Shown here: positions 2,517 to 9,872 of the stretch, piece after piece
Layout of the letters: every line of letters begins with the position of its first letter
Position numbering within the stretch: position 1 is the stretch's first letter
Source of the DNA: Mobula hypostoma
Taxonomy: Eukaryota
DNA: 64,000 nucleotides
Reading direction: 5' to 3'
NCBI RefSeq assembly: GCF_963921235.1
Contig: NC_086097.1
Span: 101,124,001-101,188,000 of the forward strand
Notes under the pieces: generated by a model
The model's database searches: none
What the model was told of the DNA's origin: nothing
The model's input: only the letters and a program-made list of their open reading frames with translations
Made by a program: the position numbers and the translations under genes

Positions 2517-3118
2517 TGTAAGGGTTTCTTTTATGTTACTGCTAAGGTGAATAAAATGGCTTCTCTGTACTGTTAACTGCTGAGACAGTGGTTCTCTATA
2601 GCAGTATGTCTGGATTATAATTAGTGATAACGGGACTTGTATTCATTTGTTAACCAATTGGGATAGATGTTATTATTTCTGTCTGTGTGAAAGCTGTTAG
2701 TTGCGTGGGCTTTGGGGAGAAGGCACGAGAAGGATGAAGAGAGAAGACGTGGCTTGAAGAGACAGTTGCTGAACCCACTGGGCTTGGGCTCGGGGCGGGA
2801 TCCCAGGGATCGACGACGAGCAAAGGAGGATCAGCCAAAGGGAATCCGTGAGCTCCAACGTTTGTGCACTGGATATGTTTATGAGATTATTGGCACCTTT
2901 TATTTGTTTTCCTTTTCTTTTGTTTCTCTACTATTCCCATACTTAAATATAAAATCTTAATCATTTAACCGCACATTGCGGACTGAATGTTATTTCGGGG
3001 TACTGATGTTACACAGGGGACACAACATGCAGCATCCACCCAAACAATAATGCGAAGGTTTGGTCGGGGAGGGGGAGCCACCCCTGAGATCATGCCACTG
3101 GGCAAAGCAAGTCCTACG
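2517..3118 (+). repeat. 5' LTR (602 bp)
   Basis: Starts TGTAAGGG, ends CCTACG; direct repeat of 6547-7175. Confidence 0.95.
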
Positions 3119-3121
3119 TTG

Positions 3122-3139
3122 TGGGGGCTCGTCCGGGAT
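3122..3139 (+). promoter_or_regulatory. Primer-binding site complementary to tRNA-Pro
   Basis: TGGGGGCTCGTCCGGGAT, the canonical 18-nt tRNA-Pro PBS (as in MLV), 3 nt after the 5' LTR. Confidence 0.93.
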
Positions 3140-3189
3140 CTGGATTTTCGTAGGGTGCTGCGTGTTTGCCCTGTTTAAATCAGAGCCAG

Positions 3190-3990
3190 TGTGTCTCTGG
3201 GGGATTGCGGTTAGTAATGTGTACCTCTGTGGGATTGGGGTTAGTAACCGACTGAGTGGGGTGGATATTCATACCTTGGATGAATTGTTAACTCGATTTT
3301 TGAGTACGGTTAAAGCTGATGGCGAAGTTGAAAACCGCAGCGCAAAAGTTTGATAAAATGGCGGGCTCAGACCTTGCTTCAGCGCCGGCTAGCGCTGACG
3401 TCACAGAGGTGGGATTGTCAGTGTCTATTGGTGCCCTGGGTGAGGCGGGGCCAAGGGCTGTCCATACTGTCAGGAGGGAAGGGAAAGAGTGGTCGGAATA
3501 TTCCTGCTATGGCAAGCTCCACCTGATCTTTGGAATAATGTCCACCCCTAAAGGGGCGGAGCGGACCTCTCAGTTGTTAGGTGAGTGGCAGTGCTTGGCT
3601 GAGGGAAAGCGACAGGGATTGGTTGAAAGTTTGAATGGGCAGGCTACTGATGGTGTTAGAACTGTCAGGTTCAATTACCCCGTAGTGACAGCTGCCAGTT
3701 ATCTGAAAGCAGGGGAAAATGCATTTGGTTCGACTGGAAGCAAAATGCAGCACCTGGGGAGCTTTCCGTACCTGTGTCAGGAGATTGGGGAAAGGCTTTC
3801 AGTGTATCTTCTCTGGCTAGGGGTCAGCTAGATTGTTTGCAGCGCCAGGGGGATCATTTAAGGGGATCAGCCCCTCCCTCAGTTGTTCAGCTGATTAGAG
3901 AGATGTCGGGAAACTTAGTGGAGGCCCAGTGGGGGAAACAGCTTGGGGTCTCTGGGGGAACATGTTCCCAGCAATGTACCAAGGAACTCC
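3190..3990 (+). pseudogene. PNMA (paraneoplastic Ma)-type Gag, frameshifted and internally deleted
   Basis: LSGVDIHTLDELL...; YGKLHLIFGIMSTPKG..LLGEWQC..KRQGLVESLNGQA..ENAFGSTGS..QEIGERLSVYL resembles the PNMA-like capsid. Confidence 0.85.
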
Positions 3991-3994
3991 CGAA

Positions 3995-5215
3995 AGGAAA
4001 AAACCCTATTCCTGAAGGCTTAGAGGGACCACACCCCCGTGTGTCGTTACAGATAGATGGAAGCTCTGCTAAGGCCATCCTTGACACCAGGGCGCAGGTC
4101 AAGTTGCTGCACAGTTCCTTTTGCAACCGGTATTTGAAGCATTTACTCTCGACACCATTCAGGGCACTGGAAATTCGGAGTATCAGTGCTAGGGATTATT
4201 CAGAAGACGATTATTGGTCAGTGAAACTGGAGTTCTCGGAGGCCAAGGTGGGGGTGTCTGAACTTCGTGAATCGTTAGTGCTGATGTGTCCGGACACTGT
4301 TGAGACGGGCAGCGTTTCGATTCCAGAGAGGACCAACACCCCACTGATGCAGAGGCGCATGGGGGCCTGCCAGGAGGAGGCGGGTGAGAGTTGTTTGGGG
4401 GCGTTGTCTGTGCACCCCATGTTTCGAGGTGCTTGTGAGGACGTGTGTAGCAGCATTGGGCGGGTACCGAATTTAAACGAGAGCCGATGATGGTATGGCC
4501 CGGGGGAAGTATCTGAGGGTGAGACCCTCTTAGTGGATGCTCCAATGTACCACGTGGGGGGGGGAGTTGACTGCTGAAGACACCTCACAGAGAGAGAGGT
4601 TGCGGGGACTGGCCCCTGTAGCTGTGGAAGACGTAGTGTGTGTGGGTTATAGGGCTCTGAACAGGCGCACGGTCATTGACCCGAATACGGTCCTGAGGGC
4701 CGAAGACGCTATGGCCTGTTAGTGTGGTGCGACGTGGCTTAATGTGCTGGATCTGAGGAGTGGATGTTGCCAGATCCCGATGAGTGAGGCCAACAAGAAG
4801 ACGGCCGTTATAGGTCCCCTAGGAATTTTCCGGTCCGAAAAGATGCCAAAGGGCATTTCCAGAGCGCCTGCAACCTTCCCACGGGGTGTGGGGAAGACCA
4901 TGGGGGATGTGGAAGTGTTTGGAGTTCTGCCGTATGTGGATGACCGCCTAGGGTTTGGATTCGCCTTGGGGGACTATGACGCGAGGCGAGTGGCGAAGCC
5001 CGGGTGACAAAGAGTTAAAGAACTAAAACTTTCTTTGGACAGGTGCCAGGTCTGGAGAAAGATGCAGTTCATGTGTGCTCTGTGTTCAGCTGTGGAATTC
5101 TACGGTAATCCTTGGAGATTCGCCAGGGACTACGGCACAGTGCGGCACGCCTTGAATCTGCTGCTGTGTGGCTACCCTCCCTTGGAGAAGAAAGGGAGGG
5201 GGGAAAAGCGACAGA
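3995..5215 (+). pseudogene. Gypsy aspartic protease and reverse transcriptase, decayed
   Basis: AILDTRAQV (degenerate DTG motif); [41 protein letters not shown] (YxDD); connection region FARDYGTVRHALNLLLCGYPP. Confidence 0.9.
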
Positions 5216-5244
5216 AGCAAAGTGTAAAATGTGGAGTAGTTTTT

Positions 5245-6055
5245 GGCCGGCAGAGTTTGGTGCAATCTGAGAGAAATGACCCGATATACCAGTTGAACTT
5301 CCTGGTGTTGGAACAGACAATGGTGGACCTGGGGCTGGAAACCCAGGTCGTCAATCGGAATGAGACACTGGAGAGAGATGGGATTTGCACCGCTGAACTG
5401 AGCGCTCAGAAATGCAGGCTGGAGACTGCAAGAGTGCCGCACTTTTGGGGCAGACCTCGAAGACTTAGAGTCCACACTCATCAATGGAGACGGAGAACCA
5501 AAATTTTGAGCAGGAACTGCGGCCACTTACTGATGAATTAATCCAGAAAAGATTGGAAGACTTACAAGTTGGGGAAGACGAAGGAAGCTGTCTAGGCCAA
5601 CAGAAAACCGAGAGCCCAGAGAAGGGAGTTTGATTACATTTCCGAGGAGGTGAAGCAATCGAGGACAGATCTTGGAAAAGGGAAGCAGATGCTTGAAGGG
5701 AACCTGAAGATGACCATCGACAGTTTAAATGAAGTGGAAAAACTGAAAGTTGACCTGGAAAAAGTCATCAGGAAGAAAAAGCTAGAGATAAGTTCAGTGG
5801 ACACTAAACTGGAGGCTGAACATTCTTTAACTGCTGCTTTTCAGGTCGGCATGGAAGAAGCTGGTGGAGTAACTATGTCTCAGATTGAGACGGCCAAGAA
5901 GCGTGAGTCAGAACTGCTGAGACTGTGACGAGAGGTGGAGGAGTCCAAGAAGAAGCTGACGTCTCGATTACAGGAGGCTGAAGAGGCTGTAGAAGCAGTC
6001 CAGGCCAAGTGCTTCAGTTTGGAGAAAATCAAACAGCAGCTACCAATTGAGGAAA
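5245..6055 (+). pseudogene. Captured intronless sarcomeric myosin heavy chain rod fragment (MYH16-like)
   Basis: [61 protein letters not shown] and [27 protein letters not shown] are recognisable myosin II rod segments. Confidence 0.9.
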
Positions 6056-6533
6056 TGAGGAAAAATACGGATTCGAAGGATGATGTGCTGGATGTGTGGT
6101 ACATGCTGCCTTTCACTAACTTCCCCTTGATTGAGGAAGAGACTTTTGGCCCTTCTCCCACTGAGTGAGGTGCAGTGGGGAGGACTAGCTGTGGGCAGCC
6201 TGGGTTACAGCAGGACCCTGAAGGAAAAGAAGGGGGCTCCCGGACACGGGAAAGGGGGCTCCGAGTTACAGTGGGGGCATGAGTGAGAGATTGAGAGAGG
6301 AGTTGGCAAGCAGACCCAAGGTATCCCCAGTTGCGTCCGAGCCTGAAGGGTTTAGGTGAGGGGGTACGGAGGTTTTGGAGGATTAGGAAACTCCCAGATA
6401 AGTTGGCCTATGTAGCGCCTGGGGAACAGGGTGTAAGGTCTACTGTTTGGGGAGCAATGTCACTGTTTGGGTTTTTGTATCTGCAGGAAGGGTTGGCGAG
6501 TTATTTAGAAGTCATGAGGACATGACTAAATTT

Positions 6534-6546
6534 GGTGGGGGGAGAG
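6534..6546 (+). promoter_or_regulatory. Polypurine tract
   Basis: GGTGGGGGGAGAG immediately before the 3' LTR. Confidence 0.85.
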
Positions 6547-7175
6547 TGCAAGGGTTTCTTCTTTTATGTTACCGCTAAGGTGAATAAAATGGCTTCTCTG
6601 TACTGTTAACTGCTGAGACAGTGGTTCTCTATAGCAGTATGCTTGGATTATAATTAGTGATAATGGGACTTGTATTCATTTGTTAACCAATTGGGATAGA
6701 TGTTATTCTTTCTGTCTGTGTGAAAGCTGTTAGTTGCGCGGGCTTTGGGGAGAAGGCGCAAGGAGGATGAAGCGAGAAGACGTGGCTTGAGGAGACAGTT
6801 GCCGGACCTGCTGGGCCTGGGCTCGGGGCGGGAGCCAGGCCTGGGCTCGGGGTGGCAGCCCAGGAGTCGACGACGAGCGCAGGAGGATCAGCGAAAGGGA
6901 ATCCGTGAGCTCTAACATTTGTGCACTGGACATGTTTATGAGATTATTGGCGCCTTTCATTTGTTTTCTTTTTCTTTTGTTTCTCTACCAACCCCATACT
7001 TAAATATAAAATCTTAATCATTTAACCGCACCTTGTGGCCTGAATGTTATTTCGGGGTACTGATGTTACACAGGGGACACAACACGCAGCATCCACCCAA
7101 ACAAGAATGCGAAGGTTTGGTCGGGGAGGGGGAGCCACCCCTGAGATCATGCCACTGGGCAAAGTGAGTCGTACA
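6547..7175 (+). repeat. 3' LTR (629 bp)
   Basis: Starts TGCAAGGG, ends GTACA; has a 24-bp tandem duplication (6814-6861) and 3 extra bases relative to the 5' LTR. Confidence 0.95.
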
Positions 7176-7834
7176 TAGTACTTTGATTATAAACATACTT
7201 TGAATTTAAAAAAAGAAAAAGAATTCCAAGTTAATATGTTCCTGTTAGAGAGGAGGGCAAGCTGGCAGGATTGGGGAACCCTGGTTGATGTAGGATTTTG
7301 ATGCTCTGGTCAGGAAAAGGTGAGAGACACTCATGTATCATCAGGTAGGATCAACTGATTCCCTAAGTAGTATAAAGGATGTAGGAGTACACAAGAGGGA
7401 AATCAGGAGGGCAAAAAGAGGATGTGAGACAGTTTTGGCAAATAAGATAAAGGAGGATTCTATTACATTTATCTATTCTATACCAACTGTCCACAACCAG
7501 AGCCTTTTGCAGTCTGAGGAAGAGCATATTTAAAGACTAAAAGCTTGAACCCAGCTTAAAGCTCAAGGTCTACTGGGCAGCGATGATCTCTGTCCCCTGT
7601 ATGTTTAAGTAGCAAGGACTAGACACATCAAACCACTGGAAACACAAAATCGCAAAATCCTGCAAATCCATCAGCAGGTTTAAGTAAAACAATATTGTAT
7701 GCTTTAATCACACCAACTGAGGGTCTAATTATACTTAATCAACCTCAATTGACCAGCCATGCCATTGGAAAATCCAACATCAGATTGTTAGCTCCCAAAA
7801 AGGGCAATACTCCAGGCTCTATCATGGGAAAAAG

Positions 7835-9872
7835 ATTAGACCATAAGGCACAGGTGCAGAATTGGGCCATTTGGCCCACCAAGTCTGCTCCTCTATTCAA
7901 TCATGGCTGATCCCTTTGTCCCCCTCCTCAGCCCCACTCCCCAGCCTTCTTCCTGTAACCTCTGAAGCTGTGTCCAATCAAGAACCTATCAAGCTCTGCC
8001 TTAAATACACCTAATGACCTGGTCTCCACAACTGCCCGTGGTATAAAATTATACAAATTCACACTCTCTGGCTCAAGAAATTTCTCCATATCTCCATTTT
8101 AAATGGATGCCCCCCTAACCTAAGACCTCTTGTCCTAAACCCCCACCATGAGAAACATCCTTTGCACATCTACTCTGTCTAAGCCTTTCAACATTCAAAA
8201 GGTTTCAAAGAGATTCCCCGTCTGTCTAGGTACCATATCCGATGCGGACTTTGGTGACCATGGTTTTCCATATAGATCCTTCATTTTTTTGGATGACTTC
8301 CATTTCCTCGATGTGTAGCCACCTGGCTATGCTTTTGATGTACATAAGCCGAGGTCTTCCTGCAGGTTTACTCCCCTCAATCTTTCCAGAGTATGAGTTT
8401 TTCTAGTTCATCTTTCCGCATGATGTGTCCTAGGAATCTGAGTTGTCTTTCTCTTATTGTTGGTATGAGTGATCGAACTGCTTGGGCTCTTCTGAGAACT
8501 TCTTCATTTGATGTGTGTGTGGTCCATGATATTTTTAACATTCTCCTGTAGAACCATAATTCAGCTGCTTCTAGTCTCTTTTCCATTGCTGTGGAAATGA
8601 TCCAGCACTCACTTCCATAAGTCAGGATAGAATAAATGTAGCACTGCAGTATTCTGTTTTTAGTGTACATGCTCATCTTTCTGTCTGTTAATATGGTCTT
8701 CATTTTTTGGAAAGCTTCTTTCGCCATTGCTATTCTGTATTTGATATCTGTGTCACACCTGCCATTACTTGTTATTAGGCTGCCAAGATATCTGAATTTG
8801 TTGACTTGTTTGATGTTTGTATTTCTGATCTTGATCACACATTGTGGGATGTTTGTCTTTCTGGAGATGACCATGCTTTCTGTCTTCTTGGTGTTGATTG
8901 AGAGGCCTCTACGATTACTTTCTGCCGCCACTATAGTGAGTAGTTCTTGAAGTTTTGTTTCTGAGTCAGCTATTAGTACAATGTCATCAGCATATCTGAT
9001 GTTATTTATATTATGGCCTCCAATTGTGAATCCTATGTCTTTGATACTTCTCAAGATATTTTCACTATACAGGTTGAATAAGTCTGGCGAAAAGACACAA
9101 CCTTGCCTGACTCCTCTCATGATATTCACATACTCACTCACTTCTCCTTCTATTCTGATTGATGCTGCCTGATTCCAGTATAAGTTTCTTAAAAAACGTA
9201 TATCTTTCCCATCTATGTCAAGATCTTGAAGCATTTCCAGAAGATCTTGCTGTCTGACAGTGTCAAAAGCTTTTGTATAGTCAATGAAACATAGGTAGAC
9301 GTCCGTAGCATGAAAGTTGCATTTCTGGTTCCAGTGTTTTCCACAAAGCTGCATTGTTCCCCCTCTTCATTCTAAGTTCCAGTGAGTACTGACACAAAGC
9401 CATCAAATGTTCCTCCTATGGTAACCCTTTCATTCCCAGAATTATCCTTGTAAACCTCCTCTGAAACCTCTCCAATGCCAGCACAGCTTTTCTTAGATGA
9501 GAAGCCCAAAACAGTTCACAATACTCAAGGTGAGGCCTCATCAGTGCCGTATAAAGTCTCAGCATCACATCCTTGCTCTTGCATTCTAGCCCTCTTGAAA
9601 TGAATGCTAAAATTACATTTGCCTTCCTCACCACTGACTCGACCTGCAAGGTGTTCTGCACAAGGATTCCCAAGTCCCTTGGCATCTCAGATTTTTGGAT
9701 TTTCTCCCCATTTAGAAAATAGTCTGCACATTTATTTCCACTACCAAAGTGCATGACCATGCATTTTCCAACATTGTATTTCATTTACCACTTTCTTGCC
9801 CATTCTCCTAAACTGTCCCAGTCTTTCTGCAGCCTACCTGTTTCCTCAACACACCCTGCCCCTCCACCAGAT
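7835..9872 (-). mobile_element. CR1 LINE 3' end, interrupted by an RTE element
   Basis: ORF 9416-9784: KCMVMHFG...RLYTALMRPHLEYC...QRRFTRII; CR1 3' tail near 7835. Confidence 0.9.
8220..9356 (-). mobile_element. RTE-clade LINE, 5'-truncated, RT frame open for 325 aa
   Basis: CFIDYTKAFD, RGVRQGCVFSPDLFNLYSE, IRYADD, LTYGSECW; TSD TTCCCC (8214-8219 and 9357-9362). Confidence 0.92.

Follow-up and report, generated by a model that had tools for sequence, protein, structure and literature searches.

The large junctions of a defective Gypsy element in Mobula hypostoma, among them those that enclose and interrupt a captured piece of host myosin, have kept the reading frame far more often than chance would predict. 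In the alignments analyzed here this excess of in-frame junctions is real, and it is seen in the pol remnants and in the myosin cargo alike and is not specific to the myosin. We consider it rather probable that the element depended on a helper and that its ancestors could multiply only when a single long frame headed by Gag was translated from their RNA, with the myosin as in-frame filler. As far as sequence comparison can tell, the likely cause is selection for end-to-end translation rather than for a working myosin-like protein. If true, this would be a natural example, replicated many times, of selection that acts on translation as such: in a vertebrate LTR family that is not autonomous, about twenty independent rearrangements would have left the frame intact, and the residues encoded by it would have become neutral. 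It is already known that LTR elements capture genes and that non-autonomous elements can have fusion ORFs acting in cis. New is that frame-keeping was counted along a whole element and separated from the constraint on the residues.

Anatomy of the element and its cargo

The element occupies positions 2517 to 7175 of the window, that is, of the whole stretch of 64,000 nt that was analyzed (contig NC_086097.1, positions 101,124,001 to 101,188,000, forward strand), and it is complete with respect to its LTR pair, target-site duplication, primer-binding site and purine tract. The 5' LTR (2517-3118, 602 nt) has TG...CG ends in this copy, the 3' LTR (6547-7175, 629 nt) has TG...CA ends, and the two are identical in 561 of 602 columns (93.2%). 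Both outer borders carry the same four letters, TAGT, at 2513-2516 and 7176-7179. The primer-binding site (3122-3139), which we take to be tRNA-Pro-like, lies directly 3' of the 5' LTR, and a purine-rich tract (6534-6546) precedes the 3' LTR. The LTRs and everything between them are read on the plus strand. The insertion interrupts a LINE-like repeat in its 3' end (1680-2500 and 7176-7210), and more LINE fragments are found on the minus strand (633-1064, 8377-9366 and 9416-9784); the assignment of these flanking repeats to LINEs is our presumption.

The coding part begins with a shortened PNMA-type gag (3304-3905), which is delimited by alignment blocks against P0023 and P0036 and changes frame near 3820. 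A profile search places a Pfam PNMA match (8.5e-13) at 3559-3819. A CCHC zinc knuckle was not found in any plus-strand frame of 3250-4100, the region from gag to protease; five of the six related Gag-Pol proteins checked have one. Protease and linker (3945-4544, with a stop at 4488) share 92 of 166 residues with positions 6-171 of P0161, a full-length Gypsy Pol in which the integrase comes last. Reverse transcriptase and connection (4576-5220, placed by alignment to Pol) retain the YVDD motif and have internal deletions of about 35 and 30 residues as well as stops at 4720 and 5005. An RNase H stub follows at 5236-5328 and corresponds to P0161 700-730 (14 of 31 residues identical), with 48-52% identity to P0023 and P0025. 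The part of RNase H that precedes this stub and everything after it, integrase included, are missing from this copy, and 726 nt of myosin (5329-6054) stand in place of P0161 residues about 731-1330. With no counterpart of these residues and with large gaps in reverse transcriptase and RNase H, the copy is not autonomous. Behind the cargo and in frame with it lies the C-terminal tail of Gypsy Pol (6076-6282, with stops at 6166 and 6280-6282), and the remainder of this tail (6349-6548) is located 3' of the latter stop. A preliminary description of this DNA had only presumed such a pol tail; protein alignment confirms it, matching 6076-6198 to P0161 1334-1374 and 6349-6507 to P0161 1451-1508. All pol parts are colinear with P0161, and the gene order, a PNMA-like gag followed by protease, reverse transcriptase and RNase H, is that of a Ty3/Gypsy LTR retrotransposon of the PNMA-gag type. 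The models P0008 and P0017 terminate where this copy has its stop at 6280-6282, which suggests that this shared stop is the terminus of the element family itself.

The cargo is an intron-free piece of a myosin rod whose segments correspond to MYH16 residues ~907-1098, ~1141-1175 and ~1384-1419, so that it is colinear with MYH16 907-1419 between RNase H and the Pol tail. We presume that this span crosses several exons in the myosin gene structure. The arrangement, an intron-free piece of host mRNA flanked by discontinuous element sequence, is that of an LTR-mediated retrocopy. Relative to Callorhinchus MYH16 (P0167) the FQ/VG jump omits 42 residues and the EES/KKKL jump 208 residues, and near 5540 a further 20 residues are deleted relative to P0007. 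In P0002, P0009, P0018 and P0020 the RNase H stub is longer, and the myosin joined to it begins later. Both sides of the junction formed at capture therefore probably reached further at first and were then trimmed separately in the subfamilies.

In a tree of 83 columns the cargo joins the Narcine protein P0041 (XP_069785580) at 99/99 and falls neither within the MYH16 set (87/90) nor within MYH7/7B/15 (99/99). Its identity is 66% to P0041 versus 52% to Callorhinchus MYH16. P0041 is a diverged rod protein of the MYH16 family, and its N-terminus is unrelated. Judged by these comparisons, the cargo is best described as MYH16-family, and its donor may have been a separate batoid paralogue. A direct search with a family protein found no full-length myosin; the host myosin set was obtained via P0041, and no full-length ray orthologue was among the proteins returned. 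In P0146 a MYH16-like rod piece follows a start that looks to be of the dematin/ABLIM type.

Reading frame across the junctions

The preliminary description had listed two ORFs, 5035-5541 and 5935-6168, and had pointed to four joins, the two pol-myosin junctions and two internal myosin deletions, as keeping the frame. Both ORFs exist, the former reaching from 5008 to 5541 when taken from stop to stop, and the two sides of each of these joins share one frame (codon start at position mod 3 = 1). The connection peptide with its GYPP motif does not run straight into myosin, as had been thought, since a pol deletion and the RNase H stub intervene and myosin begins at about 5329 (MYH16 residue 907). 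That the first ORF carries myosin is correct for 5329 to about 5428 and incorrect beyond, where the myosin continues in another frame and the final ~110 nt of the ORF are off-frame text. The myosin switches frame at about 5428 and again at about 5484 and returns at about 5593, and a stop at 5926-5928 is located just before the second jump. Compensatory frameshifting was considered and rejected: the frame is restored after about 165 nt, yet two stops of the original frame, at 5539 and 5593, lie within this interval. Cereblon, the only PDB match for ORF 5008-5538, has an E value of about 0.7-1 and is a chance hit.

Taken alone, four of four named joins in frame are weak evidence (P = 0.012 at an in-frame chance of 1/3 and 0.041 at 0.45). 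Along the whole copy, alignment to P0161, P0023, P0167 and P0007 puts 10 of the 11 large junctions before the shared stop in frame (P = 1.3e-4 at 1/3 and 2.2e-3 at 0.45), some of them having short flanks of 10-15 residues. The junctions counted are gag-to-protease, the protease linker, 4544-4576, 4635, 5050, 5220-5236, 5329, 5540, 5844, 5946 and 6057; a weak junction near 3850 inside gag was left out. Only 4544-4576 is out of frame in this copy, and the models P0003, P0013, P0014 and P0016 read through there.

Related RefSeq models are found in Mobula, Hypanus and Hemitrygon, but such models favour open frames and may include predicted introns. Contigs of four runs carry no gene annotation and contain thousands of pieces at 82-99% identity to the element. 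The best 15 of 122 joints and the best 12 of 34 filled joints, picked by support, comprise 21 distinct joints, and 15 of the 16 located before 6170 are in frame, where unknown letters between the pieces, present in 5 of these 16, were counted as none. Three of the in-frame joints correctly bridge frame changes of this copy. Out of frame before 6170 are one of the four joints in the event 5062-5382 and one joint from the piece table. Manual grouping of the joints listed before 6170 gives 11 deletion events, 10 of them in frame, and combined with the junctions of this copy 20 of 22 keep the frame (P = 3e-8 at 1/3 and about 9e-6 at 0.45). Further in-frame losses of 114-300 nt are present at many places in other copies. 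The contig comparison covered 4380 onward; a single Gag-led fusion frame is found from protease to tail, and its link from gag to protease is seen in this copy only, which has the frame change at ~3820 and no zinc knuckle. In one of the runs (X3), possibly of RNA, most of the depth at 5840-6130 comes from a single contig, which has a length difference at 6058. The models P0054 and P0060 change frame at this same position.

It might be that no selection was involved and that template switches at microhomologies of the heptad-coded DNA, or an exon-skipped donor mRNA, together with chance, generated the pattern. Shared residues do flank some of the joins (EE at the 208-residue jump, IQ at 5540), and the FQ/V join can be read as one deletion of 42 residues or as two of 7 and 35. 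Microhomology lifts the in-frame share to about 45%, and for this DNA the expected share is raised only to about 0.36-0.46; a null model from the DNA of this copy (4576-6170) gave 33-46%, according to the shared length. However, 20 of 22 in frame has a P of 6e-5 even at 0.5, and most joins are located in pol, which has neither exons nor heptads. An origin of the 42- and 208-residue jumps by exon skipping also found no support, albeit in a weak test: no gap ends at 1141 or 1384 in any of the 63 MYH16 models checked. We consider an origin without selection very unlikely.

In the tail, from 6206 on, two of the five joints listed are in frame. It is suggestive that the frame appears to be kept upstream but not here, although the contrast is not significant (Fisher, P = 0.055 by rows and 0.15 by events).

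The stops and frameshifts of this copy look private or recent, which agrees with the earlier view of them as later decay. The contigs of other copies differ from it at 4490, 5928, 5428, 5484 and 5593, and at 4490 and 5928 this holds for about 96-100% of the contig depth in each of the four runs. Each of the five stops from 4488 to 6166 is read through in RefSeq models of other copies.

Residues of the myosin rod

An open frame could have been kept for the sake of the protein that it encodes. The preliminary description had proposed that the ancestral element may have expressed a Gag-PR-RT-coiled-coil fusion under selection. The myosin coiled coil would then have been a working domain, one that oligomerized Gag for instance. 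The first half of this proposal, a continuous Gag-led frame, does seem to have been favoured; the coiled coil as such does not, given the free drift of its residues. The sense orientation of the cargo fits a working domain, as do the in-frame state of both its ends and of both large internal jumps and the presence of some cargo in every family model with sequence at this position. The heptad phase is preserved across the 42-residue jump, but it is shifted by 3 across the 208-residue jump, and other gaps in the models (3, 4, 9, 13 and 20 residues) are not multiples of 7.

Constraint on the residues was judged for 5596-6054 by protein-level proxies on family rows that are gene models and hence biased to open frames. 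In the comparison with the host, rows lacking part of the cargo were masked and P0016 was left out. Proline accounts for 57 of 2090 residues in 19 family rows versus none of 1835 in 12 host MYH16 rows, and it occurs in two or more family rows in 10 of 153 columns. The differences between family pairs (60-82% identity) have a mean BLOSUM score of -0.39 versus +0.63 for host pairs at similar identity, where the neutral single-step expectation is -0.15 to -0.23. Residues common to at least three family rows score -0.24 against the host, versus +0.69 for host-shared residues (P = 6e-4). The drift is therefore not just decay after insertion. The a/d positions of the family are not more conserved than the rest (0.275 vs 0.284), in a test of low power in which the hosts themselves reach only 0.12 vs 0.17 (P = 0.18). 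Variability of the family columns is unrelated to host conservation (rho -0.01). The reverse transcriptase remnant drifts likewise, with 59-95% identity among family rows. The codon positions of the substitutions listed before 6282 are uninformative (10/11/16, P = 0.43; 37 places, from 40 listed of 448).

Thus, neither purifying selection on residues nor a maintained heptad register, the marks of a functional coiled-coil retrogene, was found with these proxies. The parts of the cargo that are deleted differ among the architectures, and deletions in pol, which cut conserved reverse transcriptase, RNase H and all of the integrase, are in frame just as regularly. We would therefore give little credence to a selected coiled coil, and the best reading of the alignments is that the myosin residues show no constraint and that the cargo is neutral filler. 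It had also been held that shared frameshifts or stops in the myosin, together with a dN/dS near 1, would refute the fusion. This criterion was mis-set, since an open frame combined with a dN/dS near 1 is what selection on translation predicts. One could still imagine that at the time of capture the rod was an oligomerizing coiled coil on a Gag without knuckle, that it aided the hijacking of helper particles, that this advantage drove the chimera through stingray and manta genomes and that the constraint was relaxed later; we regard such a history as a long shot.

Translation of a helper-dependent element

Selection on translation could have come about as follows. Gypsy RNA and myosin mRNA would have recombined during reverse transcription, by the mechanism proposed by Tan et al. 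(PMC5131818). The chimera would have lost its integrase and become dependent on a helper, presumably an intact relative that supplied the enzymes in trans. Pieces of pol and of the cargo would then have been lost separately in the subfamilies, almost solely in frame. The Gag part might act in cis and carry its own RNA into helper particles, in analogy to the mouse IAP 1Δ1 elements. This cis model does not explain the missing zinc knuckle. An early stop would be costly, most likely via a 3' UTR of up to 3 kb that would expose the RNA to nonsense-mediated decay. The 3' UTR measures 0.9 kb behind the shared stop versus 3.3 kb behind gag, and long retroviral 3' UTRs are reported to be targets of nonsense-mediated decay (PMC2925335). 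If early stops were costly, frame-shifting captures and deletions would for this reason have dropped out of the replicating lineage, amino-acid changes would have been free, and each copy would decay neutrally after its insertion.

Alternatively, co-assembly with helper particles may have required a fusion protein of great length, or with the bulk of a Gag-Pol, any sequence being suitable and RNA decay playing no role. This would account equally well for a frame that stays open and for amino acids that change freely, and IAP 1Δ1 is reported as a protein acting in cis. However, length was not kept, as is evident from the further in-frame losses in the copies, and the amount of cargo varies among the models by more than 100 residues. 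We therefore judge a demand for bulk to be improbable and prefer a cost of early stops.

Several known systems can be compared with the ray element. Non-autonomous IAP 1Δ1 elements of the mouse were reportedly described by Saito et al. in 2008. An internal deletion in them leaves a Gag-led fusion ORF, with the fusion reportedly helping in cis (PMC6466679, PMC7411935). One Gag-led fusion ORF after deletion and the need for enzymes in trans are common to both. According to the published accounts, however, IAP 1Δ1 belongs to the betaretrovirus-like ERVs, is defined by one deletion of 1.9 kb and carries no host cargo, whereas the ray element belongs to Gypsy, has about 20 in-frame junctions that are separate from one another and includes a piece of host myosin; its cis action is assumed by analogy. 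The animal LTR-mediated retrocopies of Tan et al. (PMC5131818) likewise consist of an intron-free host mRNA piece in sense between discontinuous LTR-element parts, with in-frame ORFs. That report explains their in-frame state by a young age (<1% divergence) or by constraint on the protein (KA/KS 0.15-0.26). In contrast, the ray copies are 50-70% apart in protein and have kept the frame with no residue constraint seen, and the ray chimera, unlike those retrocopies, has proliferated in at least three genera of rays. Maize Bs1 (PMC13317346) is also an LTR element with transduced host gene pieces in a chimeric ORF. It is a plant element with three donors and is reported to be transcribed and translated, while the ray element has one donor and gives no sign of a host function. 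In hepatitis C virus subgenomes (PMC4583497), deletions of a helper-dependent genome are reported to be invariably in frame; these subgenomes need the downstream replicase genes, whereas the ray element has no recognizably functional sequence downstream of gag and protease.

Selection on translation has so far been described mainly from the single IAP 1Δ1 deletion. If our reading holds, the question why defective retroelements keep open frames becomes countable within one genome. Our reading would also offer an explanation for the tendency of LTR elements to carry captured host pieces in sense and in frame, a state in which these are raw material for chimeric genes. Because the frame has been kept, copies figure in RefSeq as 'MYH16' or 'myosin heavy chain-like' genes, both in Mobula and in Hypanus, and element copies listed in this way can inflate myosin counts. 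In the literature searched, mostly openly readable papers, we found no description of this element family or of its frame pattern, and the main text of a manta genome preprint (10.64898/2026.10.27.761883) contains neither 'myosin' nor 'MYH'. Metagenome scans for DNA of other copies gave no matches; the sole 20-mer match of the DNA search (L001) is unrelated and due to chance. Element sequence is also present inside the RefSeq models P0014, P0069 and P0040, which are annotated as glutathione S-transferase theta-2 X1, SDHAF3 X1 and an uncharacterised protein, and these may be exonised copies or annotation errors.
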